64,000 nucleotides of DNA, from the UHGV virus genome UHGV-1550212, one strand, 5' to 3'. The position numbers and the translations under genes are program-made. Shown piece by piece: positions 9,960 to 62,334 of the stretch. This DNA comes from a virus. Each line of letters opens with the position of its first letter. Position 1 is the first letter of the stretch. The notes beneath the pieces were generated by a model. It was not told the origin of the DNA, did not search any database, and saw only the letters and a list, made by a program, of their open reading frames with translations.

Positions 9960-11457
9960 TGCGAGGATTTATGATTGCAAGTTCAATATCATAGTCGCCG
10001 ATATGACGAAAATGATGTCTAAAAAGATATTTGTCAGATGTAGCTTCAATGACACCACCAGATATTGCATTACGATATGCGCATGTCCATTTGATGTCAT
10101 GCGGAGCATAAGCATATGACAGCTCATCTGGGAAGCAGCACACTTGACTCCCAACTGTCACAGTTGCGCCATTGTCAATCTTGCAGAACCTTGTGTCATT
10201 TGGTCTACGTTGCACTGCATAGTGATGCTGACATTCAAACATGTCTGATTTGATTAACAGAGTTTGCCAAGGCGATTCAATGAGATATCGAGGCTTTTGA
10301 GACTCTTCACTTACAAGTTTACAATGCAGTCCAAGATTTTCAAGCTCTTCAACAAGTTGAGTATTTGCAATGTGTTGGGTGTAGTGTTTGTCATTTGTGT
10401 GTATTTCCACATCATGCTCAGTAGTGTCAACGACATCTGCAATAATTGTCGCAGGCCAGTTGCCAGTCAGCTCAAAATCATCAAATGCAAAATGCAAGTC
10501 GGTGTTAACATGCAATTGTGCTCTGCTCATAGGCTCTTTGCTGTACGCATACAATGCCCATTGCATTGAATTGTCAAGCATCTGAATTTCTTGCACAGAC
10601 CATGTAAACTTTGCAAATTGTGAATCTGCATGCAATTCACAGTAGTCATTGATTTGCTTAAGCAAGTCTTTAACATCTGCGTATGCAATGTTGACTTCAT
10701 CTGCATCAACTTGAATGCCATTGACATCGACAAACTCAGACATCGACATTGCAAATGTGTCAGCATCTTCAATATCAATTTGCATGTTCAGATATGTTGA
10801 GCCGTACTGCAACAATCGCATGCAATCAGAATCAACAAGTTTGATGTCATTCAAATGGTCAAGCCATAGAACATTTGATTGCGCCTTGTCAAGATTGTAG
10901 AGCCATTTTATGATTGAGTCGTCTTTTTTGACATTTTCTGGGTCAAACACATTTGGGTCTGGGTAGCTCATGAAATCTGGCACACCCAATGCTTTTCGTG
11001 TGCTATAGTACAATGTAGCATTGTTCATGCCTGCAATGTCAATTGACTCATCAGGCTCTTGAAGCTTTGCAGCAATTTGAGACAACGAATTGCCTGCATA
11101 TATCTGCTCAAGTGAATGTCGTTTGTTGTCTGCAATAGCAATGACAAAGTTTGCTTGCAATTCTACGATGTTCAGTGTGCGTTTGAATGCTTGTACTTGA
11201 CCATAACAATCTTTGATAGTCAACACAAGTTCATACACACCTGCAGTTGTTATGCCAAGCTTAAGATGCTGTTGAACATCAAGATACGTTCTGTCAAACA
11301 CAAGCTTGCCAGAATCATCATAGATTTCATACGTAGCTTCTCTACAATTTTGTATGAGCGCAGATAAGTCTGCGTCTTTTGATGACCATGCTGCAATTGA
11401 AATGTCTATAATTGCTACATTGTCTCTGTAAAAAAGCCCTATAGGTTGTGGATTCAT
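9907..11457 (-). CDS. hypothetical structural protein
   Basis: 516-aa ORF, ATG confirmed; 53-nt overlap with the downstream gene. Confidence 0.5.
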   Translation of the reverse strand: MNPQPIGLFYRDNVAIIDISIAAWSSKDADLSALIQNCREATYEIYDDSGKLVFDRTYLDVQQHLKLGITTAGVYELVLTIKDCYGQVQAFKRTLNIVELQANFVIAIADNKRHSLEQIYAGNSLSQIAAKLQEPDESIDIAGMNNATLYYSTRKALGVPDFMSYPDPNVFDPENVKKDDSIIKWLYNLDKAQSNVLWLDHLNDIKLVDSDCMRLLQYGSTYLNMQIDIEDADTFAMSMSEFVDVNGIQVDADEVNIAYADVKDLLKQINDYCELHADSQFAKFTWSVQEIQMLDNSMQWALYAYSKEPMSRAQLHVNTDLHFAFDDFELTGNWPATIIADVVDTTEHDVEIHTNDKHYTQHIANTQLVEELENLGLHCKLVSEESQKPRYLIESPWQTLLIKSDMFECQHHYAVQRRPNDTRFCKIDNGATVTVGSQVCCFPDELSYAYAPHDIKWTCAYRNAISGGVIEATSDKYLFRHHFRHIGDYDIELAIINPRNGKVIKRINKAVSVTKG

Positions 11458-11935: not shown

Positions 11936-13261
11936 TCATTCTGCGATTTCCCAGATTCGTGTTCGTTTATTTGCTATGCTTCGTACTACAGCACTGTCAC
12001 CTATGCGAACATCCCATGCTCGATTTGATGTCAATGTGATGTTCTTTGTGCCACCAGGCTGCTCAAATGATAAGTTTGCTTTGTCAAGTTCAAGCAATGG
12101 GGCCAAGTCCATGCTTTGGTCAATAAGCCAGTCAAAGTACTCAGCGTCAATTTGCGATGTATCAATGTCTGCTTCTGTGACTACAAAAATGTCATTAAGC
12201 TTGTTTGGTCTAACAGTGTCACCAATTGGCTCAAATGCAGTGCTTGGCAGAAGCATTGTATGTGGACGAATGTAAATGATGTCTTCATCTACAAATGCAT
12301 TCATATCTTTAACTATAATTTGCGCTGCTGGCGTGTATGGTTTTGATGTTACAATTTCTGCATTGTCTGAGCCATACAAATATCGAGCCATGTATGATGC
12401 AAAAACATCAATGCTGACATCTGCAAAATGAATGTGCTCTGGCAAAAAGACGTCTTCAAGAATCATGACAAGATACTGCAGCTTCAGCAACAAATCTTGA
12501 TTGTCTGCCATGTTCTTGACAAATTCAGGCATGCCACAATTCAGATATTTGCCAGACGCTTCATTGTATTCATAGGTCAATTGCAGCAAATTTGTGCGTT
12601 TGTACATGCCTGCGTATGGCGAAATGTCATCTTGCAATGGCAGCAATGTTCTGTTGTTGCCATCAAGTGATTTGAGCACTTCATAGATGCGAACAGCTTC
12701 ACTGTAGCCAAGCCAGTCTAATGCAGCATGCAACCCATTGTATGTGCCAAGCTTGCTGTCAATATCATCTCGTCGTATAAGCCACTCTCTTGCTTTGCTA
12801 TTCTGCAATATGAAGTCAACGACATCTTGTCGAATGTCATTCAGCATCAATGCTTTGTTGTAGTACTCAAGATAGTCATGACCCATATTAGACATCATGA
12901 CAAGCAAACGTTCATCAGCATCAACTACTGTAGCAGTCACATTGATATGCAATGCAATGTCATCAACGACAACTTCAATTGCACAAACGTTGTTGCCAAC
13001 ATCGACAGCATTGAATATGATGTTTGCAGTCATGTCGTCATTGACAAGATGCCGAGTAGTCTTATCTACAAGCAGCAATTCATTATTCTCATTAACTGCA
13101 AAGAAACTCAATGCAGACGATAGCAATCTAACTGTGCATTCAACATTGTCTGAAAACAATGATGCAATGTTATATGTGCCCTTTGACACATTGCCAAGCT
13201 CTATGTTAGCGCCGTCATAGATGCGCTTGCCGAATCTGTCAAAAATGTTTATTGCAGCCAT
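11936..13261 (-). CDS. hypothetical structural protein
   Basis: Track ORF 11936..13285 begins with TTG; first ATG is codon 9 (cat at 13259-13261), used here. Confidence 0.5.
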   Translation of the reverse strand: MAAINIFDRFGKRIYDGANIELGNVSKGTYNIASLFSDNVECTVRLLSSALSFFAVNENNELLLVDKTTRHLVNDDMTANIIFNAVDVGNNVCAIEVVVDDIALHINVTATVVDADERLLVMMSNMGHDYLEYYNKALMLNDIRQDVVDFILQNSKAREWLIRRDDIDSKLGTYNGLHAALDWLGYSEAVRIYEVLKSLDGNNRTLLPLQDDISPYAGMYKRTNLLQLTYEYNEASGKYLNCGMPEFVKNMADNQDLLLKLQYLVMILEDVFLPEHIHFADVSIDVFASYMARYLYGSDNAEIVTSKPYTPAAQIIVKDMNAFVDEDIIYIRPHTMLLPSTAFEPIGDTVRPNKLNDIFVVTEADIDTSQIDAEYFDWLIDQSMDLAPLLELDKANLSFEQPGGTKNITLTSNRAWDVRIGDSAVVRSIANKRTRIWEIAE

Positions 13262-13524
13262 GTTACAGTTTCTTATCAATGTCAAAGTTTCTTGTCAATA
13301 TCAAAATATGACGTAAAGCGATTCACAAATTCAACAAACAAAATCGATAGTGCGTCACACATGCCAATGAGAGTTGACACGCCAAAATACGCTGCAACTC
13401 TTGTGCTCTTATTGAACACTACTCTACTATACACACCACTCTGCCATGATGGCTTTGCAGTGACAAGCATTGATTGCTTGATTTTGTCTCTTGTAGTGAA
13501 ATTCGATTGCATATTTGTGAATCA

Positions 13525-15135
13525 TCAACATTCTACATACGAGCCATCAGTGTTTTCAACAAGCACTTTGATACTCAAGCTTACATCTGTGCCTTGTTGA
13601 CTTCTTATCAATGGCACAATGTCTTTTGCTTGCGGTGCAATATTGCCCATATTGTCAATGTGCTTGTCATTGCCAATGAACTGCACATCTACTGATTTGA
13701 TGACATCAAGCTCTTCAAGTTTTGCAATTGCAGCAGAACGACTAACGAATGTCGATGCATTTGACCAGGAGTCTTCTACAAACGCTTTTGCGGCATCAAG
13801 CAGTTGTTGTTTGACGTCTTCTATGTTTTGCAGTACTGCAGTCTTTTTGACAAGAATGAGCATTTGATAAAATTCAAGTTGCACAGTGTCAAATTGCACA
13901 TCAGTTAGCAGCACATAGTCACCAGTGTTTTCGATAGCATTGTTCAGATATTGTCTATCTGTAGAGTCAATCGTAAATTCTGCTATTGGCAATGACCAGT
14001 AGTCATACACTATTGAGCTCGCTTTGACATACTTGTCTGCAATGTTGGGCACCAGTACAACATGAATTGTCTGAGTCTCTGTATTTGACCAGACATCAAG
14101 TATCTTGTACTGACCAAAACGTGACATAAACGCCCTGATTGAATCTGCTGAGTGCAATACAAGCGCCCTGTTAATTGAACCTGCATGTGAACGTATTGAT
14201 TCGATGTCTTCACCATTGTAGCCGCCGACAATATCTGTCAGCTGTTCAATGACTAATACACCCTTTGGGCTTACAGCAGTAGTGTTTGCATCATACATGC
14301 CATTGACCCATTCAAATGTTGCGTCATTGTCAATCAAAATGTTTCCTGCATAGCCCTCACATGCAGTGTATTCTACATTGACAACTGCATTTTGTGCAGG
14401 AATTTGACCAGCAGTGCCATTGCCAAACACAATCTGTAGTTTGCCATCATATGACCAGCGTTCAATATACCCCTTGCTGTATCTGTCCATTTCATCAAAC
14501 CCTGCATAGCGAGTCCACAGCTCATTGCCAACTGTGACAGTCAATGAATCTTCAGATACAATCAAGTTGCGTTCTTCGATAGTGAATGTTGTCATTGACT
14601 CGCCATCAGAAATGTATTGCTGAGACTTGCGTTCACCTTGTCTGACTGCGAATTCATATCGTACACCCGTCAACTCATTGTTGATGTTGAGTTGCGCAAA
14701 GTCTTGATGCATATCGATGTAGTACATCAATGAGTTCTCTTTGCATTTAATTGCTGCATATCGTTTAATGAACACAGTTGGACCAAGCTCTTTGACTGCA
14801 TCATATGAAAAACTCAATGCAATTTTGCCTGATGCTGCAATGCCACCAACACATTTGTAACATGCAAGCTGTGCAAGTCCTCGTACAGATGCGGTCTGTT
14901 CTGCAGTAAGCAAGTTGTTTTCTTTTGTGCCTACTACAATTTGCGTAAAGATGAGTGACGCAAGTTCTCTGAAACTCTGAACAAGAATTCCAAAAATTGT
15001 GTACTTACCATATTGTTTCTTTGTAGAGTTCAGCAAATTCTGCAGCCAAGTATCTATAGACTGTGACACACCTGAATATGACATTTGCATTTTCTGCATC
15101 CACGTCATATTGTCACGAGTGTTATTTGTGCGCAT
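13525..15135 (-). CDS. hypothetical structural protein
   Basis: Track ORF 13525..15237; its first ~34 codons translate the 30-bp tandem repeats, so the start is placed at ATG 15135 (MRTNNTRDNMTWMQ); ATGs at 15108 and 15099 are also possible. Confidence 0.5.
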   Translation of the reverse strand: MRTNNTRDNMTWMQKMQMSYSGVSQSIDTWLQNLLNSTKKQYGKYTIFGILVQSFRELASLIFTQIVVGTKENNLLTAEQTASVRGLAQLACYKCVGGIAASGKIALSFSYDAVKELGPTVFIKRYAAIKCKENSLMYYIDMHQDFAQLNINNELTGVRYEFAVRQGERKSQQYISDGESMTTFTIEERNLIVSEDSLTVTVGNELWTRYAGFDEMDRYSKGYIERWSYDGKLQIVFGNGTAGQIPAQNAVVNVEYTACEGYAGNILIDNDATFEWVNGMYDANTTAVSPKGVLVIEQLTDIVGGYNGEDIESIRSHAGSINRALVLHSADSIRAFMSRFGQYKILDVWSNTETQTIHVVLVPNIADKYVKASSIVYDYWSLPIAEFTIDSTDRQYLNNAIENTGDYVLLTDVQFDTVQLEFYQMLILVKKTAVLQNIEDVKQQLLDAAKAFVEDSWSNASTFVSRSAAIAKLEELDVIKSVDVQFIGNDKHIDNMGNIAPQAKDIVPLIRSQQGTDVSLSIKVLVENTDGSYVEC

Positions 15136-15160
15136 ATCAGTTAATTTGTTTGTATATGTA

Positions 15161-15232
15161 TTCGAATGTGCACACATGAGAATAGGTCTCTTCGAATGTG
15201 CACATATGAGAATAAGTCTCTTCGAATATGTA
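15161..15232 (-). repeat. tandem ~30-bp direct repeats (2.4 copies) with TGTGCACA palindromic core
   Basis: TTCGAATGTGCACACATGAGAATAGGTCTC (15161-15190), TTCGAATGTGCACATATGAGAATAAGTCTC (15191-15220), then a partial copy TTCGAATATGTACACA; sits between a terminator and the gene start. Confidence 0.6.
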
Positions 15233-15266
15233 CACAAAAAGAAGAGCTTGCATATGCAAGCTCTTC
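15233..15266 (-). terminator. rho-independent terminator
   Basis: Perfect palindrome GAAGAGCTTGCATATGCAAGCTCTTC (15241-15266) followed on the minus strand by TTTTTG; 43 nt downstream of the stop of 15309..15692. Confidence 0.55.
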
Positions 15267-15308
15267 CATCACCAAAACCTATCTAATTATGGAAACACCT
15301 CTGAAAGG

Positions 15309-15692
15309 TCAAATGATGAATCGTTTTGTGATTGGTCTAAAGTCTTCTGGTAAATCATAGCGTTTTGTAATTGTCACATCGCAAACAAGCAAATCATTCA
15401 TTTGCGTAGCAGACTTTGTAATGAAGCAATTGACTGTCCATTCAAACAAATGCTGCGTAACACTATAATTTTTGAGTGCTGTGATGATATGCGATTGAAT
15501 TGTTGCTGTTGAAATGCTTCTGTGATAAAGCGCAGCATCAATCTTCTCAACATCAAACATAATGTCAATTTCATTCAAAAAGACACGCAATGAATCTGTT
15601 GTTTGCAATTCGTCGTCTTCTTGAGTTTCTACAAAGTCAATGCCTTGCAGCTCTTGCGACATTTGTGATGTATCGAAACGATTATCTGACAT
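15309..15692 (-). CDS. hypothetical protein
   Basis: 127-aa ORF, ATG confirmed. Confidence 0.45.
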   Translation of the reverse strand: MSDNRFDTSQMSQELQGIDFVETQEDDELQTTDSLRVFLNEIDIMFDVEKIDAALYHRSISTATIQSHIITALKNYSVTQHLFEWTVNCFITKSATQMNDLLVCDVTITKRYDLPEDFRPITKRFII

Positions 15693-15698
15693 GATATG

Positions 15699-17009
15699 CT
15701 ATGCTGTTTGTTGAACATTGACAGTCACAAGTACCTGTTTGCCAGGCTCCTGTGATTTCATTTGACGCGAGACTTCAATGAAAGCATCAAGCAATTGAGC
15801 AGGTGAAACTGTCATGCCTTGCTCCATAAGCTGCTTACGTAATGCTGCGATTTGCTGACTTGCATTTTGGTCATTGCCAATTGACAGCAGCAATGCATCA
15901 AGTCTGCGCTCAAGCTCTGCAACTTTAAGCTGAATTGACTGCAATTGTGATGCTGAATCTGCAAGTTGACTGATGGCTTGCATGTACAAATCAAGCGATA
16001 CGCCATCAATATTCGATACTTCAATGGGCGCAAGCCCAACATTACATGAGCTTACTCGAGTGCAAATGCGAAATGCGATTGCATTTGCAGAGCCGTCATC
16101 AGACATTGCTTTCTTAACAAAGCGTTGCATGCTGTAGCCTCTGCCACCTGATTCTTCATATCGATTGACAAAGAACAATGAGTGCAAGCATCGTGTTTTG
16201 ATAGATGGATTTGACTGCAGCCAAACATCACAATACAATGCAATGCAATTGAATTCAATGTCTTCATTGAATGCTTCATAATCTGAGAACTGCAGCTTCA
16301 ATCTGTCAACTGCACGACTCAGACTGTATCGACTTGCAGGTTCTACAATATCTGCATTGTCATAGATAGCTTTTGTGAATGTTGTGTCGCCATCTTCAAG
16401 ACCCTGAGCATTTTCTTGAAATGCTTCTGGCACATAGCCAACTTCAATGCCTGGATATGTTGCAGCAGACCACTTTGCATTGCATCGCTTTGCATTTGCA
16501 GGTATGTACAGATACTGTTCTGTGTACGACATGCCATTAAGCTCAACTACACCAAAATCTATCGCATTGCCAATGTATGTAACAAGCGGCTGCCAATCTG
16601 AACGTTGCACGAATGCTGCGCCATCTGCAGTAGACTCAAGTTCAAGAGCAGAAGCTTTTTGAAGCATCTTCCACAACGCAGATTCTGCAAATGTTTCATT
16701 AGCAGACTCAAGCAATGAAGTTGCAAGCAATGAGCAGTTGTCAAGGTAATTTTGACACAATGCAGGCACAAGAGCATTTGCGTCTTCAACCATCGTAGTG
16801 TCATTGAACTCTGATGGATGCACAAAGAACTTTTGCCCATTATGCTCAGCGTCGTTGTACCAGTCTGGAATGTTCAAACAAGCAAACACAGACGGCGATA
16901 CGACAATGTCATGATTCAATGTTGCATTTGTCAACAATGTATTTGTGTCAGTGAACACAAGTACAGTGCCTTGTGTTAACTTTAATGGGTCGAAAACGGA
17001 AACTCTCAT
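15699..17009 (-). CDS. hypothetical structural protein with C-terminal coiled coil
   Basis: 436-aa ORF, ATG confirmed; C-terminal heptad-like region LQSIQLKVAELERRLDALLLSIG. Confidence 0.5.
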   Translation of the reverse strand: MRVSVFDPLKLTQGTVLVFTDTNTLLTNATLNHDIVVSPSVFACLNIPDWYNDAEHNGQKFFVHPSEFNDTTMVEDANALVPALCQNYLDNCSLLATSLLESANETFAESALWKMLQKASALELESTADGAAFVQRSDWQPLVTYIGNAIDFGVVELNGMSYTEQYLYIPANAKRCNAKWSAATYPGIEVGYVPEAFQENAQGLEDGDTTFTKAIYDNADIVEPASRYSLSRAVDRLKLQFSDYEAFNEDIEFNCIALYCDVWLQSNPSIKTRCLHSLFFVNRYEESGGRGYSMQRFVKKAMSDDGSANAIAFRICTRVSSCNVGLAPIEVSNIDGVSLDLYMQAISQLADSASQLQSIQLKVAELERRLDALLLSIGNDQNASQQIAALRKQLMEQGMTVSPAQLLDAFIEVSRQMKSQEPGKQVLVTVNVQQTA

Positions 17010-17011
17010 TG

Positions 17012-17446
17012 TTATGAAATTGTCAATCGATGTTCTGCATCAGTTTGCTCACTACTGAATGTCACTGTTACTGAGTGCTCAGTGTCATTGAAACTTGCAA
17101 TGCACTCATGCTCAATGCCGGCGATTCGCAAATGCACATCAGCAAAAGTCTTGTCAATTGTCGATTTGATGACATACACATATTGCGGTGACTGTGATTC
17201 AAGTCGAGTAACAGTCACATACTGATTGTCTACTTGCTCTTCACTATTTACAAGCTCAGTCAATGTTGGCTTTACTACACTGACATGTGCAAACTGCAAT
17301 GCTTTAAGTACTGCTTTGCTTCTTGAATCTACTTGTTGCTGATTTGACACCAGCAGTTTGATTGCAGAGTATGGCGTCTCTACATTAGCATCAATAGTAT
17401 TGAGTGCAATAGGCTTTACAGTAGCCAAAAATTCTGCAAGTGTCAT
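17012..17446 (-). CDS. hypothetical protein
   Basis: 144-aa ORF, ATG confirmed; tightly packed (2-nt gaps) with neighbours. Confidence 0.45.
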   Translation of the reverse strand: MTLAEFLATVKPIALNTIDANVETPYSAIKLLVSNQQQVDSRSKAVLKALQFAHVSVVKPTLTELVNSEEQVDNQYVTVTRLESQSPQYVYVIKSTIDKTFADVHLRIAGIEHECIASFNDTEHSVTVTFSSEQTDAEHRLTIS

Positions 17447-17447
17447 A

Positions 17448-17948
17448 TTATGAAAGCTGAGCTGTAGTGTACCAAGTTAAGTCAGATTCATTGTACGTCA
17501 ATGCAATTGTAAGAGCTTGACCAAGTTGCTGTGACAATTGCTTACATGAATCAATGAATGCTTGCATATCTGCATATGACTTTGTGTAGAACATGCACCA
17601 TTCTGTTGTATTGACTGCGACATTATGAACATCTGCAAGATGACAGACTTCTACAGATGATACATTAAAGTCTGAGCCATCTTCATCAACATGATGCACA
17701 TTGTTTGCGCACCAATACTGATACAAACGAGCTTTGTCTGATGCAGTCATGTCAAACTGCATGCATTGAGCAATTGATTCATCGACATTATCAATGAATT
17801 GCTTTGCTGATTTTGACTCAAGCATCGCATGATGCAGTGTATAATTTGCATGCCAGTCTGGAGTGCCGATTGCTACGCTAAGCTGATTTTCAAACACAAA
17901 CTGCTGTGCTTGAGCTTCTTCGTAGCATTGTGTCCATGTCTTTGTCAT
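17448..17948 (-). CDS. hypothetical protein
   Basis: Track ORF 17448..17978 begins with TTG; first ATG at 17946-17948 (MTKTWTQCYEE) used. Confidence 0.45.
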   Translation of the reverse strand: MTKTWTQCYEEAQAQQFVFENQLSVAIGTPDWHANYTLHHAMLESKSAKQFIDNVDESIAQCMQFDMTASDKARLYQYWCANNVHHVDEDGSDFNVSSVEVCHLADVHNVAVNTTEWCMFYTKSYADMQAFIDSCKQLSQQLGQALTIALTYNESDLTWYTTAQLS

Positions 17949-18006
17949 GTTGTTTATCTTAAGTTTGTATATGTACAAATACTGTTGATGTTGTATTGAA
18001 GCATCG

Positions 18007-18046: not shown

Positions 18047-18065
18047 TTCAAATGCATTTTGCTTA

Positions 18066-18962
18066 TTACAATGTTCCGCAAAGCAATTCACGTAAATCCA
18101 TGCCAGCTTGTGTACTATACTGAGCAATAAGATTACGTTCTGAATCAGACATGCTCCAATAAATCTTATGCTGAGCTCTACGAATAATAGTATGAATGCC
18201 AGATGTGCTACAATTGAACTTCTTTGCAAGTTCTGCATGAGTTAACAAATCCGCATCGCCAAGGCCATACACATGTGTGAGTACAAGCTTTTCATTTTGA
18301 GTGAGTTGTTCAAATGCTCTTTGCAGAATCTTTGTGTTGCGTTTGTGAGCATCCTCGATTTCAAGAACTTCTTGGCCTGTTTTGAAGTCTGACCTCAAAT
18401 CATTCTGAACTGGTGACCATGCATCACCATCTTTATCAAGTGTAGTGTCATCCTTACTGGTGAATTGTTTGCCTTCAAGAGCTCTTTCATATGCTCCACG
18501 AATACCAGTAGATAATTGTTGACTTGTCAGATTGAGTTCGTCAAGCACATATTTCTTAATCCAAGGATATGCATATGTGCTAAACTTTGCTTCACGAACT
18601 CCTGCAGGCAATACGCCTTCTACGTAATTCTTGGCTGCTATTGACAATCCAAGATTGCCTGCTTGAATGACGTCATCCAATGGAACCGAGCGTTTGCCAG
18701 ATGCGAACCATAAGCTTCGTGCAACTGATATGACCAATCTTAAACAAGATTTGATAAGAGCTTCACGATTTTCTTGAGTCTTCTTGAATCGAGTAACATC
18801 ACAATATCGCTTTGCAGTAGCCAGCGATTTGACTTCTTCAGGAGTAAGCTCATTCTCCATCCTCATTTGCTTGAGCTCCTCCTTTGTGTATAGACGTTCT
18901 CTTGTGATTCTACCTACGTCCTTTACGTAGCCTTGATTGATTTGTGAATTTGAACCTGCCAT
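18066..18962 (-). CDS. sigma-70-family RNA polymerase sigma factor
   Basis: 298 aa, ATG confirmed. DDVIQAGNLGLSIAAKNYV...KFSTYAYPWIKKYVLDEL matches sigma-70 region 2 (DLIQEGNIGLMKAV...RFSTYATWWIRQAI); C-terminal HAELAKKFNCSTSGIHTIIRRAQHKI is a region-4-like helix-turn-helix. Confidence 0.6.
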   Translation of the reverse strand: MAGSNSQINQGYVKDVGRITRERLYTKEELKQMRMENELTPEEVKSLATAKRYCDVTRFKKTQENREALIKSCLRLVISVARSLWFASGKRSVPLDDVIQAGNLGLSIAAKNYVEGVLPAGVREAKFSTYAYPWIKKYVLDELNLTSQQLSTGIRGAYERALEGKQFTSKDDTTLDKDGDAWSPVQNDLRSDFKTGQEVLEIEDAHKRNTKILQRAFEQLTQNEKLVLTHVYGLGDADLLTHAELAKKFNCSTSGIHTIIRRAQHKIYWSMSDSERNLIAQYSTQAGMDLRELLCGTL

Positions 18963-26295: not shown

Positions 26296-26357
26296 ATTGT
26301 TCAGATGTTTTGCTTTGTATATGTATCGAATCTCATTGCATTTGATTATGTATCACT

Positions 26358-26397
26358 GTGTGCATTTTGCATCACGAAGTGCATTTTGCATATCATC
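26358..26397. promoter_or_regulatory. two copies of TGCATTTTGCAT operator-like core
   Basis: GTGCATTTTGCATCAC (26360-26375) and GTGCATTTTGCATATC (26379-26394) in the 100-bp gap upstream of the fibre gene 22957..26295. Confidence 0.4.
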
Positions 26398-34198: not shown

Positions 34199-35221
34199 TT
34201 ACAAAAGTTCCGATTCGAGATTTTGAACTGGTTGAAAAATCTGCTTGATTCCCTCTGGAAATCGAAACGGGGCTTCACCCTCCATGTGACACTTCGGGCA
34301 AGTGAACTTGATATTGTTAGATGCAAGAATCATGCACTTAGACAGAATCTTCAGCTTAAGCGGCAATTCTTTGAATGCATCCATTGCTTGGAACGACTGA
34401 CAAATTTGCTCAGCTTTCTTGACATTAAGACCTCGCCAATCAGGTGTAAGCCACTGAGCTGCAAGAATGTATGTCTTTGCGTTCATCAATGTGTCTTTGT
34501 CAAGTGTTCGCATGTACTCTGCAAAAACTTTGCCAACGCCGATTGTCGATGGCTTGAGTACAAGTTCGCCATACGAACGAGTTTGAACTCGATAGCAGCC
34601 GGTTTCAGAATCAATGTATTTGTCCATTGATTCATCGGGCTCATCCCAAGTCATATTGTCAGCAGTTAAGTCAAGCTTAAAATTATGCTTGCAAGTGCCT
34701 GATGAAATTTCCAGCGTAATCGGGTTTGTCAGCTCAGAGTTCTCAGGGAATGTGAGGTCGTGAATCAACATTATCAGGTACCACTTGTCGTGTTCGTATA
34801 TATCATCAACTGACCAATGATTCATGCCAGACTTGCTGACGCATCGAACGCATACCTTAACAATGTCGTTCAAATATGTTGCTGCTTCAGCTGGATTTGC
34901 ATTGTCATCAAGATTCGACCAGTGACGAATTTCACCTGCTCGACATGCTCGATAGATAATTTGCAAATCACTTGGGTACAGTCGACCTTGCTTAGCAAGC
35001 TTCGTCATGTCAACATTGAACCAGCCAGTGTCTGTAACTTCTGATTGACGTGCTCTTTCTGCAATACGCTCTTGAGCTACTTCAGTTGCAGCATCAATTG
35101 CGCTATCATTGACTCTTGTAGCTGCTTCAGCTTCTTCTACTACAGATGCAAGCGGATTGTTTCTACCCGCATTCTCACCGCCATCTGCTGGAATGACGAG
35201 ACGTTTCTTTTCTTGTGGCAT
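34199..35221 (-). CDS. hypothetical protein (tail module, upstream of tape measure)
   Basis: Track ORF 34199..35284; start placed at ATG 35219-35221 (MPQEKKRLVIP); 340 aa. Confidence 0.45.
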   Translation of the reverse strand: MPQEKKRLVIPADGGENAGRNNPLASVVEEAEAATRVNDSAIDAATEVAQERIAERARQSEVTDTGWFNVDMTKLAKQGRLYPSDLQIIYRACRAGEIRHWSNLDDNANPAEAATYLNDIVKVCVRCVSKSGMNHWSVDDIYEHDKWYLIMLIHDLTFPENSELTNPITLEISSGTCKHNFKLDLTADNMTWDEPDESMDKYIDSETGCYRVQTRSYGELVLKPSTIGVGKVFAEYMRTLDKDTLMNAKTYILAAQWLTPDWRGLNVKKAEQICQSFQAMDAFKELPLKLKILSKCMILASNNIKFTCPKCHMEGEAPFRFPEGIKQIFQPVQNLESELL

Positions 35222-35289
35222 ATTGTAATGTATTTGAATGGTTTTGAATATGTATTTGAGATGTGCACACATTGAAAATATCACACAAA

Positions 35290-36585
35290 CTATTGTTTGC
35301 GTTGTAATGTCAGTAGTCCACAGTCATATACAGGTAAAAATCCTGCAGCATTGTAGTCTTCTGCATGTGATATGTCATTGTCTATAAAATGCTCACCAGT
35401 TCGCATATTATGCCAATGACATTGTATAACATTGCTTACTAATTTATAGTCATCTACATATTTTGTAGGGTCTTCTTTTGACAAGTCTATTGTAATAACG
35501 TCGGCAGTTTTCAATTGTTCTGTGTCATCGATGATTGACTTTAGCAATGCGACAATTGTATCAGCGTCATCCCAATCCCAAATTGTGACGCATCGATAGC
35601 CTTGCGACATTGCTTTGCAACATTTGTCTGCATGACTATTTGCATGTCTATGCCAATTTGCTGCAGAGCGGCCTGTCATATACTCAAAGCTATACGCACT
35701 ATTATGCGTAAACGTTGGATTGATTTCAATTGCTATGTTCTCATAGCGTAAGTCATATGTAAATGATTCTATTTGCGGTTGCTCAAACTCAAATTGAACG
35801 TTAAGCGATTCTAACAAGTATCGTTGCCACCATTGATTTTGCTTAGATATGATGTGACCTTGCGCAAGTTTACAATGTGTAGTCATGCAATAATATGGCA
35901 CACCATAACGCATCATATTTGTACGTACAACTGCTTGTGTGCGTCGTTTTAAGTCACCGCCCCACTTGTTGCCATACCGTTCAAGCTTTGTTTGCGTTGC
36001 CAGTTGTATATTCACACATCCATTTGCTTTGCCATATCGTTCAAGTTTGACTTGCGTAATTTTGTCCATAGGCCCAAATGCATTACCAAATTGTGCAATC
36101 TTTGTAGCTTTCATTTTGTCAATATTGCCAACACCTTTGCTGCCAAATCGAACAAGCTTAGTGTCGCCAACTTTGCATTTAACATCATGCAATTGTGATA
36201 TGAATTCTACACCGTATTTGAGCAAGTTATTGATGCGACCATTATAACGCTGTTTAATGATGCCATGCGATGTTTTGCGTGGTGCATAACGAACAAATGG
36301 TGTATTAGCAAGTTCAGCATCTCGCAATTCTTCAAGTTCTTTTATTCGAGCTGCATGTTCAGATGCGTTATCATATTGCAACGCGCCAGCATGACGTTCA
36401 TATGGCAATCTTCCATGCTTACGTATGAAAGCAATTTTGTTTGCATATTGCACACGTATCTTACTATGTGTAGATACTCTTGCGCTTAATTTTGCATATG
36501 GCGTTTCTGCAATCAATTTATCACGTTCAGCTTCAAGTTCTTTTATTCGAGCTTCAAGAGCATCACCAGTTAGTCGTTCAGCCAT
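35290..36585 (-). CDS. homing-endonuclease-like protein, paralogue 2 (with internal N-terminal module duplication)
   Basis: Track ORF 35290..36633; start placed at ATG 36583-36585 (MAERLTGDALEARIKELE). Coiled-coil N-terminal module present twice (nt 36300-36360 and 36500-36560 share CTTCAAGTTCTTTTATTCGAGC), R/K-YG repeats, C-terminal block IEINPTFTHNS ... VYDCG. Divergently adjacent to the terminase start. Confidence 0.4.
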   Translation of the reverse strand: MAERLTGDALEARIKELEAERDKLIAETPYAKLSARVSTHSKIRVQYANKIAFIRKHGRLPYERHAGALQYDNASEHAARIKELEELRDAELANTPFVRYAPRKTSHGIIKQRYNGRINNLLKYGVEFISQLHDVKCKVGDTKLVRFGSKGVGNIDKMKATKIAQFGNAFGPMDKITQVKLERYGKANGCVNIQLATQTKLERYGNKWGGDLKRRTQAVVRTNMMRYGVPYYCMTTHCKLAQGHIISKQNQWWQRYLLESLNVQFEFEQPQIESFTYDLRYENIAIEINPTFTHNSAYSFEYMTGRSAANWHRHANSHADKCCKAMSQGYRCVTIWDWDDADTIVALLKSIIDDTEQLKTADVITIDLSKEDPTKYVDDYKLVSNVIQCHWHNMRTGEHFIDNDISHAEDYNAAGFLPVYDCGLLTLQRKQ

Positions 36586-36652
36586 TGTGCATGAATGTTC
36601 AATATGTAAATTCACTATATGTACATATAACACGAATATTCAAGTTAGATGC

Positions 36653-38644
36653 ATGGCTGAAGTCAAGAATCAAGTGTTTAATCCAGTAGCACAATTCAAA
36701 TCTGCTGAAGAAAAAGAAGCTGCGAAAGTTATATGGTGCAGTGAATCAGTCGCAATGGCATATGATGCAGTTGACCAAGGCTTGCCACTTAGAGCAAATC
36801 CGTGGTTCTTTGGCAATATTGCACTGCGTAAGCCCGGATTGCTATACAGATACACTGACATAGAATTGCGTGAATGGCTTAGATGCAAGTATGACATATT
36901 ATATTTTGCTGACACATGGTGTCAGATTTTAACTCCAGATGGCACAAGAAAGCATTTTAATTTGAGACCATATCAACGCAAAATGCTGCGTGCATATCAA
37001 CGACAAAAGTATACGATAGTTCTTACTGGGCGACAAGTAGGCAAAACGGTCGTTACATCAGTATTTCTCGCTTGGGCAGTCATTTTCAATCGTGAGCTTA
37101 ACATAGCAGTACTTGGCGACCGCTTGGCAACATCAAGTGAAAACCTGAACAAAACAAAAGACATCATAAACAATCTGCCGTTCTTTATGAAGCCTGGTGT
37201 GTTTGTTTGGAATGGCGGAATGGTCGCATTTGACAATGGTTGCAAAATTATCACAGGTACTGCTCAAAAGTCATCACTTGTCGGTAAGACAATTCACATC
37301 TTATATCTTGATGAGCTCGCAATTCCACCTGCTCAGCAATCAAAGACTCTTGTAGATTATGCATTGCCAACAATTGCGTCATTGCCAACTGGCAAAGTTA
37401 TCGTAACATCTACGCCATCTGGTGATAATGTGTTCAAGACTTTGTGGCTTGGTGCAATTAACAAAACAAATGGCTTCTTTCCAATTCAAGTAAACTGGTG
37501 GGATATTCCTGGCCGTGATGAAAAGTGGAAAGCTGAGCAAATCGCAATTCTTGGTGAAGATGCTTTCAATGAGCAATACAACTGCGTGTTCTTGTCAGGT
37601 GCAACGTCAATTTTCAATTCAAGAGCAATTGATGATATTGCAAGACGACAGCAAAAGTATGAATTTGTTGCTGATGAGCGTCTTGAATCACTACTCAGAT
37701 TCTTCATTGCTGATTCAGATGTCGGCACTGAACCCGAGCCGCACTCATTTATGACTTGGCGTGCAGATATTGACCCAGCAACACTCAAAAATGAAACATG
37801 TATCATCAATATTGACATTGCTGAAGGTTTATCTGGCGACTTTTCTGTCATACATGTGCATCGTATAGTTGACATTACAAAAGATGTTGAACTTGAACTT
37901 GATGCAAGCAATCTGTATGATATGTTTGACGATGACAAAAAATCATTGTTTGCAAAAGCAGTTGAAATGCAACGTCAAATGTCAGCAACACAAGCTCAAG
38001 ATGATGACGATGATGACGATGACGACTGGTTTGGCGCAGACGATGATGTCGCTCAAGGCGTTGATGCATATCAAGATTATGCGAATGCTGCAGTAGAAGA
38101 GATTGGCTTATGGCGTTCAAATGTGACATCAATCAAAGTCATGGCTCTGTATTTGCAGTTCTTAATGACGTATGTGTTTGATGCAAACAAAACAAAGATT
38201 ATCTATGAACGCAACAAATATGGTGGAGAGTTTCGTTCATATTGTTTGTCTGAACGTGCACGCAATATTGCAATTGATGAAGAGAGCTTCGTAAGCTTCC
38301 AACGAACTCTTGGTTCAGAACAACTTGCACCAGGCTGTTCAATTACGCCTGGCACCAAACCAGTGTACGTAAGACAGCTCAAAGACCTTATTGAAACTGG
38401 CAAGATTCTTGAAAACAATGCAGATACGCAAAGAGAGCTTACATATTTTGGCGGTGTCAAAGGCAAGAATGGTCACGTGTCATATCAGGCGTCACCTGGC
38501 TTCCATGATGACATTGCAATGACTCTTGTATCTCTTGCAGCATTTATGGACACTCGATGCAATGACTGGCTTGAACTGCTTGATGTGTTCTACAATGGCA
38601 GCAGTCAAACAAGTTCTGATGATGACGATGATGACTGGATTTGA
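36653..38644 (+). CDS. terminase large subunit
   Basis: ATG at 36653 (MAEVKNQV); the track's 36425 start overlaps the neighbouring minus-strand gene. ATPase motifs LTGRQVGKT (Walker A) and ILYLDELA (Walker B), followed by a nuclease-type C-terminal half. Contains an internal D9-W-F tract (38000-38029) and ends DDDDDDWI. Confidence 0.7.
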   Translation: MAEVKNQVFNPVAQFKSAEEKEAAKVIWCSESVAMAYDAVDQGLPLRANPWFFGNIALRKPGLLYRYTDIELREWLRCKYDILYFADTWCQILTPDGTRKHFNLRPYQRKMLRAYQRQKYTIVLTGRQVGKTVVTSVFLAWAVIFNRELNIAVLGDRLATSSENLNKTKDIINNLPFFMKPGVFVWNGGMVAFDNGCKIITGTAQKSSLVGKTIHILYLDELAIPPAQQSKTLVDYALPTIASLPTGKVIVTSTPSGDNVFKTLWLGAINKTNGFFPIQVNWWDIPGRDEKWKAEQIAILGEDAFNEQYNCVFLSGATSIFNSRAIDDIARRQQKYEFVADERLESLLRFFIADSDVGTEPEPHSFMTWRADIDPATLKNETCIINIDIAEGLSGDFSVIHVHRIVDITKDVELELDASNLYDMFDDDKKSLFAKAVEMQRQMSATQAQDDDDDDDDDWFGADDDVAQGVDAYQDYANAAVEEIGLWRSNVTSIKVMALYLQFLMTYVFDANKTKIIYERNKYGGEFRSYCLSERARNIAIDEESFVSFQRTLGSEQLAPGCSITPGTKPVYVRQLKDLIETGKILENNADTQRELTYFGGVKGKNGHVSYQASPGFHDDIAMTLVSLAAFMDTRCNDWLELLDVFYNGSSQTSSDDDDDDWI

Positions 38645-41757: not shown

Positions 41758-41832
41758 TTGTTTTGATGCAAAATGCAAAACAATATAAAATTGTTTTGAT
41801 GCAAAATGCAAAACAATATAAAATTGTTTTGA
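41758..41832 (-). repeat. tandem 33-bp repeats (2.3 copies) carrying the TGCATTTTGCATC core
   Basis: GTTTTGATGCAAAATGCAAAACAATATAAAATT x2 plus a partial copy; 26 nt upstream of the Cys-rich gene and just downstream of the ligase stop. Reverse complement of the motif in the 728-875 array. Confidence 0.6.
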
Positions 41833-41835
41833 TAT

Positions 41836-48775: not shown

Positions 48776-48844
48776 TTGTTGTGATATGTGATATGATGCA
48801 AAATGCATATTCATATTGTATATGAATATGATACAACAAACGTG
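48776..48844 (-). promoter_or_regulatory. promoter-like region upstream of clamp loader
   Basis: Minus strand: CGTTTGTTGTATCATATTCATATACAATATGAATATGCATTTTGCATCATATCAC; combines the TTGTA+ATAT element with one TGCATTTTGCATC core. Confidence 0.45.
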
Positions 48845-56022: not shown

Positions 56023-56089
56023 ATTGTCGAAATCTTGTTTGTGTTATATGTACACAAAACTGCACCAGCAATTTTGCTGGTGCAGCTGG

Positions 56090-57951: not shown

Positions 57952-58920
57952 TTAATCAAGCCAATGCAACATATTCTCATCATCAAAACGAGATTCAAGC
58001 TCTGCTGTCGTAATGAATGCAAGTTTGTTCAGCATATACTGCTGCAATTCACGTTTGCGAATTGATTCAAATCTGACAAATGTTTCAGGCACTTCAAGTT
58101 CACCATCAGCATCATATGTTGCAACAGACGTGTCAACATTGATGTTATGAATCTTTTCACATGACACTCTGTACTTTGTCAAGTCAAAGCCTGGCATGCC
58201 ATCATTACGAGGCAGCAAACTCCACATAGCAAAGTTTTCTACAGCTTCAGCAACAAATGCAAGAGCTTCATGCATGTCAACACTATAGTCTTCTATAAGA
58301 TTTGCATACAATGTAGCTACAATGTTTTGGTGTGTTGCAAGGTCAAGCTTATTACTAATTGCATGCTCAAAAATGTCTTTGAAGTTCTCATACATAGTAA
58401 AGTTCTTCAAGACAAGTCGCTGTAATGCTGTGCGATCTTCAAGAGCTGCAAATGCTGCGTCATCATGCATTGCAGAAGCTGCTGCTTGCTGAGCATTCAG
58501 TACAACTGACACATCATGAATGACAAATTTTGAGTCAATCAATACTGACACTGCAATAAATGGTGCAACAGACTTTGAGTCTTTTTGAGCAAAGTCAATC
58601 TTAATGTGAAATGAATTGCCTTGTCGTGATTGCACTGAATGATAAATGTCGTAGTCGTTGACATACAGCTTAAAGTGCTGCTTGATTGCATCATTGACTG
58701 CATTGATGCCCGCATCATAAATGTTGCCAATCACTTCAAGTGCACGAGTGTTAAGCGTATGTGCAAGAAATGCTACGTTTTGATAGTTGACGAGTTTGTG
58801 AGACAAGTCAGTCGTGCTGTTAAGTTGTCTCATCAAATCATGCAGTGCATCGTATGACAATTTGATGTCATCTAATGTGTTGCACTCATGTATTGCGTTA
58901 ATTTGCTGTGCCAGAGTCAT
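57952..58920 (-). CDS. hypothetical protein
   Basis: 322-aa ORF, ATG confirmed. Confidence 0.5.
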   Translation of the reverse strand: MTLAQQINAIHECNTLDDIKLSYDALHDLMRQLNSTTDLSHKLVNYQNVAFLAHTLNTRALEVIGNIYDAGINAVNDAIKQHFKLYVNDYDIYHSVQSRQGNSFHIKIDFAQKDSKSVAPFIAVSVLIDSKFVIHDVSVVLNAQQAAASAMHDDAAFAALEDRTALQRLVLKNFTMYENFKDIFEHAISNKLDLATHQNIVATLYANLIEDYSVDMHEALAFVAEAVENFAMWSLLPRNDGMPGFDLTKYRVSCEKIHNINVDTSVATYDADGELEVPETFVRFESIRKRELQQYMLNKLAFITTAELESRFDDENMLHWLD

Positions 58921-60701: not shown

Positions 60702-61079
60702 GCAAATATATTTTTGTTTGTATATGTACATAAAAGAGCAAGTTCTCAATGTGGAGAACTTGCTCAGCTGACCTGTTGCCAGGTGAAAGCGTGGTGCAGC
60801 ACCTTGTGCTGCAATGGCTATGCTGCCATCGCCATAACGGGCTGAGCATTGCCCAGCATCATTACACGACCAGCTGCATTAAGCGTACGCTTTGCTTTGT
60901 TGAAAAATTTGCCAGTTATCTGGTATCTGCACATCTATTCAAGCGACCTACTATGCAATCAAATGCCTGTCGAGCCCAATGTTTGAGCAGTTGTTTGTCA
61001 GATGCTCAGCTGACTGCAGTCTTTCTGAGTGTATCAAGTTCAGCGATTCTGCATCTTTGCTAAATGGCAATAGTTCAGG

Positions 61080-61155
61080 TGGACTCGCCGAGAATCGAAC
61101 TCGGGTCTTACATAGCGCATCCTTGACTTGGTCCTGTAAACAGGGTTGTCAACAT
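61080..61155 (-). pseudogene. tRNA-like 3' fragment (T-arm plus acceptor 3' strand only)
   Basis: Minus strand: CCGAG-TTCGATT-CTCGG followed by CGAGTCC-A, but no matching 5' acceptor strand, D-arm or anticodon arm within 80 nt upstream. Confidence 0.3.
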
Positions 61156-61160
61156 GCATT

Positions 61161-61231
61161 GCAATACGACAGGACTCGAACCTGCGACCTCGGATTGGAC
61201 GTCCGCGCTCTTACCGCTGAGCTACGTATTC
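61161..61231 (-). tRNA. tRNA, probably tRNA-Gly (anticodon TCC); Trp (CCA) not excluded
   Basis: Minus strand: GAATACG-TA-GCTC-AGCGGTAA-GAGC-GCGGA-CGTCCAA-TCCGA-GGTC-GCAGG-TTCGAGT-CCTGT-CGTATTG-C. Canonical D- and T-arms; anticodon stem has a G-A pair and position 33 is G, so the register is uncertain. Hand fold. Confidence 0.5.
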
Positions 61232-61321
61232 TTATCAATTGACTGCACTGCAATGCAATCAATCGTGCCAATGATATTTGACGCATAATTGCAGTTATGC
61301 GTAACAATTCAAATGTCATTG

Positions 61322-61394
61322 AGCCAACTGCAGGAGTCGAACCTGTAACCTGCTGATTACAAATCAGCTGCTCTGCCAATTGAGCTAAGTTGGC
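61322..61394 (-). tRNA. tRNA-Thr (anticodon TGT)
   Basis: Minus strand: GCCAACT-TA-GCTC-AATTGGCA-GAGC-A-GCTGA-TTTGTAA-TCAGC-AGGTT-ACAGG-TTCGACT-CCTGC-AGTTGGC-T; perfect 7-bp acceptor and 5-bp anticodon stem. Confidence 0.8.
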
Positions 61395-61476
61395 ATAAAG
61401 TCGTTGGGCCATTGCAACCCAAACCTATCATCTTTGTCTAACCAAAGATGCAAGTGTTCTCTTACACCACGACTTG

Positions 61477-61548
61477 TAGCCGAACTTGGAGTCGAACCAA
61501 GCTTTCGAGAATGAAAATCTCGCGTCCTAACCGATAGACGAAACGGCC
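61477..61548 (-). tRNA. tRNA-Glu (anticodon TTC), acceptor stem imperfect
   Basis: Minus strand: GGCCGTT-TC-GTCT-ATCGGTTA-GGAC-G-CGAGA-TTTTCAT-TCTCG-AAAG-CTTGG-TTCGACT-CCAAG-TTCGGCT-A; D-arm identical in form to E. coli tRNA-Glu, but acceptor pairs 6-67 and 7-66 are T-T. Confidence 0.5.
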
Positions 61549-61635
61549 AAGAGCAGTTCAAGTCTGCAGCATTGAACTGCGGAAACAATGCCTGTACGGG
61601 CAGCAAATTGTGCAGATACAGCGACATTGCAAAAT

Positions 61636-61728
61636 CACACCGAACCAAGTTTGTGGCTCTTCTGTCTCATAAAAACAAGTAATCATTACACTTGGCACCA
61701 ATGATTCTGATGTAAAAATCGGTGTGTT
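61636..61728. ncRNA. structured RNA-like element with 8-bp terminal inverted repeat (not a canonical tRNA)
   Basis: CACACCGA (61636-61643) pairs with TCGGTGTG (61721-61728); internal hairpin CAAGT-AATCATTAC-ACTTG; no T-loop consensus. Lies between tRNA-Glu and tRNA-Ser. Confidence 0.25.
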
Positions 61729-61731
61729 ATG

Positions 61732-61816
61732 CGGAGAGTAAGGGATTCGAACCCCTGGTACGTTGCCGTACAGTGGTTTTCAAGACCACCGCCATCGACC
61801 GCTCGGCCAACTCTCC
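61732..61816 (-). tRNA. tRNA-Ser (anticodon TGA), long variable arm
   Basis: Minus strand: GGAGAGT-TG-GCCG-AGCGGTCGAT-GGC-G-GTGGT-CTTGAAA-ACCAC-TGTACGGCAACGTACC-AGGGG-TTCGAAT-CCCTT-ACTCTCC-G. Confidence 0.8.
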
Positions 61817-62010
61817 ATAAAACATTGCATAAGCATTCTTATCTCTTGATGAGACCAAGTAGCTAATTTGGCAAGTTTGTTATATCTATCGTGACTGTTG
61901 CAGTTTGTTTGTCACTCAATACACAAAACTTTCGAACATTCATTGACAGCACTGCAATATCGCTTTTTAAGCTTAGCCATCAATGTATTTATGCAATGTA
62001 TAACAATTCG

Positions 62011-62092
62011 TAGCCAAACCGGGACTTGAACCCAGACTCCTAATGGAACAACATTTTGAGTGTTGCGTGTCTACCAATTCCACCATTTGGCC
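62011..62092 (-). tRNA. tRNA-Leu (anticodon CAA), long variable arm
   Basis: Minus strand: GGCCAAA-TG-GTG-GAATTGGTAGA-CAC-G-CAACA-CTCAAAA-TGTTG-TTCCATTAGGAGTC-TGGGT-TCAAGTC-CCGG-TTTGGCT-A. Confidence 0.75.
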
Positions 62093-62182
62093 ATTTACAA
62101 ATGCAATCTATTTCACAACTGTTTGCATTTGCATTGTTTAACACTAAAAATATGATTCATCTAATCAAAAACCAGAGAATTG

Positions 62183-62256
62183 TAGGGTAGACAGGACTCA
62201 AACCTGCGACCACGTGGTCCCAAACCACGCATTCTAATCAACTGAACTACTACCCT
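62183..62256 (-). tRNA. tRNA-Pro (anticodon TGG)
   Basis: Minus strand: AGGGTAG-TA-GTTC-AGTTGATTA-GAAT-G-CGTGG-TTTGGGA-CCACG-TGGTC-GCAGG-TTTGAGT-CCTGT-CTACCCT-A; all stems pair. Confidence 0.8.
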
Positions 62257-62262
62257 AAGTAG

Positions 62263-62334
62263 TTGAACCGTCTGGACTCGAACCAGAAATGGCTGAACCA
62301 AAATCAGCTGTGTTACCGATTACACCACGATTCA
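62263..62334 (-). tRNA. tRNA-Gln (anticodon TTG)
   Basis: Minus strand: TGAATCG-TG-GTG-TAATCGGTAA-CAC-A-GCTGA-TTTTGGT-TCAGC-CATT-TCTGG-TTCGAGT-CCAGA-CGGTTCA-A; U1-A72 as in bacterial tRNA-Gln. Confidence 0.75.

Follow-up and report, generated by a model that had tools for sequence, protein, structure and literature searches.

The DNA analysed here (64,000 nucleotides, referred to below as the window) comes from a large tailed phage in which, according to the list of open reading frames, almost every gene lies on the minus strand; its genes include those for a terminase, an NAD-dependent ligase, a clamp loader, a tape-measure-like protein, a sigma-70-type sigma factor, and a gp6-like baseplate wedge subunit. 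The wedge subunit gene (13525..15135, minus strand, 536 aa) is the first gene downstream of the spacer described in this report, and the gene upstream of the spacer (15309..15692, minus strand, 127 aa; taken from the same list) is the last gene of the preceding transcription unit. Read in the direction of transcription, the spacer contains a 3' UTR, an intrinsic terminator, an array of tandem repeats, and a 13-nt box, and its layout can be written as hairpin-TTTTTGTG-TACATAT-(TCGAAGAGAC...CACAT)x2-TCGAA-TACATATACAAAC; the canonical junction at other loci is hairpin-TTTT(G/A)TG-TACATATAC.

A megablast search of the INPHARED phages with positions 13000-17500 returned no match, and we found no close GenBank phage. 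A tblastn search with the terminase identified the Chryseobacterium phages MA9V-1/-2 (40-47% amino acid identity), Tenacibaculum phage PTm1, and Sphingomonas phage PAU as distant cultured relatives. A ∼95% identical relative of 175.6 kb (L001) is present in IMG/VR, and many further ones were found in ENA and Logan assemblies; gene order is identical across all relatives examined. Shine-Dalgarno motifs are absent before the start codons in the sequences inspected, which fits a Bacteroidota host, and the phage probably infects a member of this phylum. In our best reading, the phage is a large myovirus distantly related to T4 and the locus is an operon boundary within its block of structural genes. 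A search of the literature on this phage group and on repeat arrays at phage late promoters yielded nothing specific.

Some features of the window at large are recorded here in their own right. GATC occurs once in the 64 kb (at 58434; about 207-232 copies expected) and CTAG four times (2540, 28455, 38973, and 42836; about 103-232 expected), and this extreme avoidance suggests selection by a GATC-specific host restriction system; TGCA is present in 1124 copies against 232 expected from base composition. ARAGORN called a permuted tmRNA at 60727-61169 (minus strand; tag peptide GKFFNKAKRTLNAAGRVMMLGNAQPVMAMAA) that adjoins seven tRNA genes at 61161-62334. No tmRNA was found there at the Rfam gathering score, and the call may be either false or a divergent phage tmRNA-like RNA.

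Flanking genes, terminator, and candidate promoter box

The 127-aa protein has positional orthologues of 42-51% identity in distant relatives, and a word-index homologue search returned near-identical proteins only. Searches of Pfam, PHROG, and PDB gave no match, and no family matched even at E = 1; a single-sequence AlphaFold model was weak (pLDDT 62), and Foldseek found nothing in PDB below E = 0.1. We considered this protein as a regulator and set the idea aside on the lack of any family, PDB sequence, or Foldseek match. Searches of the genes neighbouring the array did not reveal a helix-turn-helix or any other DNA-binding domain.

The 536-aa protein matches PHROG 219 "baseplate wedge subunit" (E = 2.4e-22), and its homologues span 54-99% identity. 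Its start at ATG 15135 is backed by an N-terminus, MRTNxTxD, that is conserved in relatives of 54-81% identity. The first-pass annotation, which had been made from the sequence alone, placed a structural gene at 13525..15135, and the family match together with the conserved N-terminus bears this out. In public gene calls (P0001-P0005 and P0016-P0025) the wedge protein measures 550-580 aa, with starts at ATGs inside or before the terminator hairpin and a reading frame that runs through the repeat. These N-terminal extensions are, on comparison of the sequences, artefacts, and they record the repeat allele of each assembly.

The spacer begins with 41 nt of 3' UTR (15268..15308, minus strand), between the upstream stop codon and the terminator, where 10 strains differ at 5 of 41 columns (pi = 0.033). 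The predicted intrinsic terminator follows (15236..15267, minus strand; 12-bp stem, 4-nt loop) and was recognized by pattern scan and by folding. Its core is the perfect 26-nt palindrome GAAGAGCTTGCATATGCAAGCTCTTC at 15241-15266, which the first-pass annotation had already singled out as a terminator and which sequence, pattern scan, and fold confirmed; the run TTTTT (15240..15236), which gives the U5 tract, comes next on the minus strand. The predicted fold has an energy of -19.8 kcal/mol (z = -5.4), and none of 200 shuffled sequences was equally stable. The terminator is nearly invariant among the 10 strains, which are ∼95% identical (1 of 33 columns variable, pi = 0.005). A hairpin with a U-tract also occupies the corresponding spacer of four more distant relatives, L003 (81%), L004 (56%), L006 (56%), and L007 (54%); the stem of L003 is almost the same in sequence, and those of the other three are unrelated to it. 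The element thus combines a stem-loop and U-tract with a same-strand stop codon upstream and a position conserved in relatives, as is expected of an intrinsic terminator. A 15-nt sequence at the junction of the 3' arm and the T-run, GCTCTTCTTTTTGTG, is common to this terminator (15233-15247, minus strand) and the one at 2219-2233 (0.01 occurrences expected), and the remaining parts of the two stems differ; the shared junction hints that such sequence has been exchanged between loci.

The box TACATATACAAAC (15148..15160, minus strand, 13 nt) lies 12 nt before the wedge ATG and is the putative promoter of the wedge unit. Further exact copies are found at 17963-17975 and 60716-60728, and a copy with a single mismatch at 26313-26325; all four are on the minus strand and precede start codons by 12-17 nt. 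When as many as two mismatches are allowed, the window holds 10 copies against 2.5 expected, a number that none of 100 shuffles reached, and TACATATA shows a strand bias of eight minus to one plus. The variants GTGTACATATAACAC, ACACATATACAC, GCATATAAATATC, and TGTACATATAG precede other genes, and variants of the box were located near 56051, 36622, 35254, 3618, and 2952. At 60.7, 56.05, and 17.97 kb the box directly follows a hairpin and U-tract, and the orthologous spacers of relatives carry the boxes ATACATATATCAAAA (L004), GCATATAAATATC (L006), and GTACATATAAAAAG (L007). No upstream element is common to the copies of the box before structural genes.

Because it recurs before start codons, several times just past terminators, we read TACATATACAAAC as a promoter; it is probably a phage promoter at which transcription of structural genes restarts (late-type), and it would belong to the same broad type as the late box of T4, TATAAATA. 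The sigma factor gene of the window (18066-18962, minus strand) belongs to the sigma-70 family (Pfam regions 2 and 4; nearest solved structures, SigA and RpoS; no gp55-like match) and lies just upstream of a terminator, a box, and the block of structural genes; its product is a candidate reader of one phage promoter class. The first-pass annotation had missed the box between the array and the ATG, which is a likelier control element of the downstream genes than the array is.

Two further observations were made. A minus-strand open reading frame at 35290-36633, with a weak "homing endonuclease" PHROG match, overlaps the start of the plus-strand terminase reading frame (36425-38644) by ∼200 nt, and the box-like TGTACATATAG at 36622 suggests that the real start of the minus-strand gene lies near 36580 and hence that the two genes are transcribed divergently. 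A second family of motifs, the near-palindrome ATGCAAAATGCAT (the TGCATTTTGCATC family; eight matches with at most one mismatch against 2.2 expected), often forms intergenic tandem arrays. Its sites are at 711-875, 10485-10497, 18052-18064, 26360-26391, 41758-41833, and 48796-48808, one array lying upstream of the 26.3-kb box, and it looks like the operator of a dimeric regulator. The first-pass annotation had called the repeats of the present locus distinct from the TGCATTTTGCA family; consistent with this, the array contains no copy of ATGCAAAATGCAT.

Structure and variation of the repeat array

The first-pass annotation described 30-bp tandem repeats after the terminator, and Tandem Repeats Finder detected them at 15161-15236 with a period of 30, 2.5 copies, 89% matches, and a score of 124. 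On the minus strand, a distal partial unit (15221..15236, TGTGTACATATTCGAA) directly abuts the U-tract, a middle 30-bp unit (15191..15220, GAGACTTATTCTCATATGTGCACATTCGAA) is missing in strains with 1.5 copies, and a promoter-proximal 30-bp unit (15161..15190, GAGACCTATTCTCATGTGTGCACATTCGAA) completes the array, the end of which is 25 nt from the wedge ATG. Each unit ends in TTCGAA, the sequence that also abuts the box, and carries a purine-pyrimidine tract, CATRTGTGCACAT, that resembles the 5' flank of the box, TGTGTACATAT. The 30-mer, with up to three mismatches, occurs twice in the window against 0.00 expected, and no unit was found elsewhere in the 64-kb window or in the 175.6-kb close relative. 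The unit pattern TTCGAAGAGAC(N)TATTCTCAT gave one match in IMG/VR (in the 175.6-kb relative), one in the JGI metagenomes (L015), and none among 185,579 prokaryotic genomes. In these collections the unit is restricted to one phage lineage and one locus.

The palindromes of sequence TGTGCACA emphasized in the first-pass annotation are present in the repeats, but the window as a whole holds no excess of this word (3 copies, where dinucleotide shuffles predict 10.6 and a maximal-order Markov model predicts 1.5), and they are the least conserved part of the unit. The sole other copy in the window (35262-35269) is 7 nt upstream of a box-like site. We rejected TGTGCACA as a fixed upstream promoter element, given that the octamer mutates freely in the array and that the cassette at 35262-35269 is absent from a close relative. 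Sequence ATGTGTGCACAT followed 6-7 nt later by TACATAT is found both in the promoter-proximal unit and upstream of the gene starting at 35221. In that second promoter region (35221-35290, minus strand), the window strain has ATGTGTGCACAT and TACATATTCAAAAC, and the IMG/VR relative (L016, 740-875) has another box-like sequence, CAAATATATAAAACAAAC; the pattern looks as if promoter cassettes had been exchanged or replaced between strains, and not as if the element were required.

In the window strain the distal unit has a sequence similar to the box's 5' half (TTTTGTGTACATAT, also found at 56.05 kb), and this unit is the most variable segment among strains, which carry TGTACATA, TGCGCATA, TGCGCGCA, TGTGCACA, or TGCGCATG there. 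An insertion with a 7-bp target duplication (TACATAT ... TACATAT) was considered and rejected, as it fits the window strain only and most strains have GCGCATAT distally. Within the array, neither a sigma-70 consensus scan nor inspection of both strands by eye revealed a promoter, and no Bacteroidota TTTG / TAnnTTTG pattern was seen. A permissive Rfam search of 14900-15500 gave chance-level microRNA-like matches only and no riboswitch or leader family.

The first-pass annotation had proposed that repeat copy number be compared among related phages, and this comparison revealed variation between 1.5 and 2.5 units. Alleles of 1.5 units are carried by L008, L010, L011, P0016 (37 contigs), P0018, and P0020 and alleles of 2.5 units by the window, L001, L009, L012-L015, P0021, P0023, and P0025; no close strain has fewer than 1.5 units, and a total of two sizes were seen. 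T6-GCGCGCA is the distal haplotype of both L008 (1.5 units) and L015 (2.5 units), the remaining 1.5-unit strains carry another, and the flanking distances are mosaic; the haplotype common to L008 and L015 indicates that gain or loss of a unit happened more than once. Beyond the loss or gain of one whole unit, the strains differ by 1-nt indels that make units of 29 or 30 nt.

Substitutions were compared in an alignment of ten independent assemblies that are ∼95% identical over 3 kb. The segment from box to ATG has no variable column (0 of 28, pi = 0), the array has 10 of 74 (pi = 0.048), and at third codon positions 28-31% of columns vary (pi = 0.10-0.12); the array is less variable than third codon positions (10/74 versus 281/940 columns, Fisher p = 0.002). 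All variable columns of the array fall in the octamer (TGTGCACA, TTTGCACA, TGTGCATA, TGCGCGCA, TGCGCATA, or TGTACATA) or at the base after GAGAC, and TTCGAA, GAGAC, and TATTCTCAT (46 columns) do not vary across the 10 strains. The associated test of invariant segments (p = 2e-5) is optimistic because the classes were picked after the data had been inspected.

More distant relatives do not share the array. L003 (wedge protein 81% identical) has an almost identical terminator and no array; L006 (56%) also lacks an array, and its ATG is preceded at ∼45 nt by another hairpin terminator; and L004 (56%) and L007 (54%) carry arrays of unrelated sequence (19 bp x 5 and 14 bp x 3, respectively) upstream of their terminators. 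With neighbouring spacers included, the unrelated arrays of these two relatives lie at L004 2722-2815 and 2211-2256 and at L007 4-39 (19 bp x 4.9, 15 bp x 3.1, and 14 bp x 2.6). Several Logan contigs, those behind L005 and L007 among them, start at or inside arrays, an indication that repeats break short-read assemblies. On this comparison of sequences, the conserved features of the spacer are the terminator and the box, and the repeat is a recent and labile addition.

Interpretation of the spacer as a probable operon boundary

The feature is an ordinary operon boundary with a lineage-specific, copy-variable repeat. The reading that we favour, and hold to be somewhat more probable than all others together, is that of a boundary at which transcription terminates and restarts and at which the array is a duplication, variable in copy number, of the DNA upstream of the promoter and acts as a modulator at most. 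The Rho-independent terminator (15267..15236) would end the transcript of the upstream four-gene unit, and transcription of the wedge unit would restart at a phage promoter with TACATATACAAAC (15160..15148) as its core, yielding a short leader without a Shine-Dalgarno motif. The 29/30-bp repeats would represent a lineage-specific tandem duplication of the DNA immediately upstream of the box; the TTCGAA at the unit ends and the likeness of CATRTGTGCACAT to the box flank fit such an origin. Units would be gained and lost by slippage or unequal recombination between GCACATTCGAA repeats, giving the 1.5- and 2.5-unit alleles in the population. The array would be dispensable for termination and for the promoter core and, we infer, functionally weak or neutral; at most, each unit would shift the distance between terminator and promoter by about three helical turns and add or remove a copy of the TTCGAAGAGAC...TATTCTCAT module. 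The invariance of TTCGAA, GAGAC, and TATTCTCAT speaks against this reading and makes a sequence-specific constraint such as a binding site possible; the plain spacer between stop codon and terminator is similarly constrained. The lower variability of the array relative to third codon positions and the lack of alleles below 1.5 units in close strains also count against it.

The first-pass annotation had interpreted the repeats either as a second regulator-binding array or as an anti-termination or attenuation device. Its terminator, array, downstream gene, and separation from the other repeat family all stand, attenuation does not, and the regulator-binding array is weakened to a minority possibility. 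In that reading, the array would consist of binding sites for a phage or host protein (an activator, a repressor, or an architectural protein) that tunes the wedge promoter, with the number of units setting its strength or timing. Substitutions in all units of the 10 strains are confined to positions outside the three invariant segments, the array is less diverse than third codon positions, and at least 1.5 units are retained in every close strain, all as expected of binding sites, and the 29-30 bp spacing comes close to three helical turns. Moreover, direct repeats, of a different family, also lie upstream of the second "ATTCGA-TACATATACAAA" promoter (26.3 kb). However, the window and the 175.6-kb relative each have the unit at one locus only, so that any regulator of it would have just one target, and both the number (1.5/2.5) and the length (29/30 nt) of units vary between near-identical strains. 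The natural site for a dimer, TGTGCACA, is not conserved, with TTTGCACA, TGTGCATA, and TGCGCGCA also present; the 81% relative keeps terminator and gene order without an array, and the neighbouring genes yielded no DNA-binding domain. We regard binding sites as possible but doubtful.

A related idea, which we consider improbable, is that the array acts as a contingency-type tuner in which gain or loss of a unit switches the wedge promoter between two settings, either through TTCGAAGAGAC...TATTCTCAT modules bound by a putative factor or through the change in distance between terminator and promoter. If it were true, the dosage of baseplate proteins would be adjusted relative to the products of the upstream genes.

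Less likely again is that the units are extra weak promoters or decoys with a degenerate 5' half of the box, which would provide tandem starts or titrate polymerase. Two parts of the distal unit of the window, TTTTTGTGTACATATTC, do recur at such sites, TTTTGTGTACATAT in the 56.05-kb box and TACATATTC in the box-like sequence of 35.25 kb, and all units contain CATRTG or ACAT tracts similar to the flank of the box. Yet the conserved 3' half of the box, ACAAAC, is absent from every unit (at least three mismatches to the 13-mer), the distal unit in most strains is GCGCATATTC or GCGCGCATTC and not box-like, and a transcript from the array would have a structured leader, unlike the short leaders at other boxes.

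An anti-termination or attenuation device governing read-through into the structural genes is very unlikely. The array adjoins a strong terminator, and RNA made by read-through could fold into additional hairpins that pair one TGTGCACA tract with the next, but these hairpins are without U-tracts and the octamers are not conserved. Because the array lies wholly 3' of the U-tract, it would be transcribed after the decision to terminate, and on this ground we reject the proposal; no conserved alternative pairing with the stem is offered by the 41 nt that precede the terminator, no covarying pairing was found, the array-less relatives retain the terminator, and no Rfam riboswitch or leader family matched. 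A long-range pairing of ATAGGT (15283..15278) with ACCTAT of the unit was examined and discarded, the unit position varying (C, T, or gap) with no upstream compensation.

A reading in which the repeats code for extra N-terminal residues of the baseplate protein, as the public calls of 550-580 aa imply and as a frame open through the array in several strains (in which gene callers began at ATGs in or before the terminator) might allow, is scarcely credible, as 1-nt indels between strains shift the frame inside the array, the window frame from the terminator ATG meets TGA before 15135, relatives of 54-81% identity begin at the MRTN ATG, and the supposed start codons lie inside the terminator hairpin.

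Returning to the reading of a terminate-and-restart boundary with a duplicated promoter-upstream segment, its practical value would lie in marking where one operon gives way to the next and in offering a candidate promoter box, TACATATACAAAC, for uncultivated phages of ∼175 kb whose nearest cultured relatives infect Bacteroidota. In addition, public wedge gene calls wrongly span the terminator and the repeat, and the difference between 1.5 and 2.5 units offers a simple strain marker. Should the array modulate the promoter, this would be a minor phage case of structural-gene expression tuned by repeat number; no result here calls for that.

Comparison with known systems

Arrays of operators or iterons resemble the present one in that direct repeats with short palindromes adjoin a (putative) promoter. 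Here, in contrast, no cognate protein was found, there is one locus per genome, the palindrome is unconserved, and unit number and length are variable; neither a fixed number and phasing of sites nor a nearby DNA-binding gene or reuse of the motif was observed. An attenuator would have its element 5' of, or overlapping, the terminator, with an alternative structure, and the array has neither this position nor such a structure.

The nearest described example is provided by the PeSLs, composite terminator/promoter cassettes of T4-like phages (Arbiol et al. 2010, PMC2839356; Comeau et al. 2014, PMC4122927), which the latter paper describes as cassettes of an early promoter and a stem-loop that lie in hyperplastic regions and mediate the swapping of genes. 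Like PeSLs, a small composite stop/start module recurs between genes in the window (at 60.7, 56.05, 17.97, and 15.2 kb), the GCTCTTCTTTTTGTG junction is shared with the terminator at 2219-2233, and the module is linked to indels and cassette replacement between close strains. Unlike PeSLs as so described, the modules precede structural genes in a conserved block, and it is the tandem repeat that varies, not a gene. The locus does not fit an early-type promoter in a hyperplastic region that mediates gene indels; conserved structural genes follow, and gene order is constant in all relatives examined. The stems, moreover, are not conserved in sequence, and the common parts are the 13-nt box and one 15-nt junction only.

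The box itself invites comparison with the promoters of late genes in T4. T4 late promoters have a TATAAATA box at -10 and no -35 element, and they are served by gp55/gp33 and the sliding clamp. The present box is likewise short and AT-rich, is found ∼20-30 nt before structural start codons and in varied upstream contexts, even directly against a terminator, and has TATAAATA-like versions in relatives, for example GCATATAAATATC. The consensus differs, being TACATATACAAAC here with CATATAAA- and TATAAATA-like variants, and the box would be of similar kind with another consensus; the sigma gene of the window is sigma-70-like (regions 2 and 4), and a clamp-loader gene is present.

The array behaves like the variable-number tandem repeats (minisatellites) of bacterial and phage intergenic regions. 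As in these, the units of 29-30 bp are arranged head to tail and are non-coding, copy number is polymorphic in independent assemblies with recurrent gain and loss between near-identical strains, and 1-nt indels that would shift a reading frame occur. Unlike such repeats, the array has two allele sizes only, and parts of its unit are invariant, which gives a hint of constraint.
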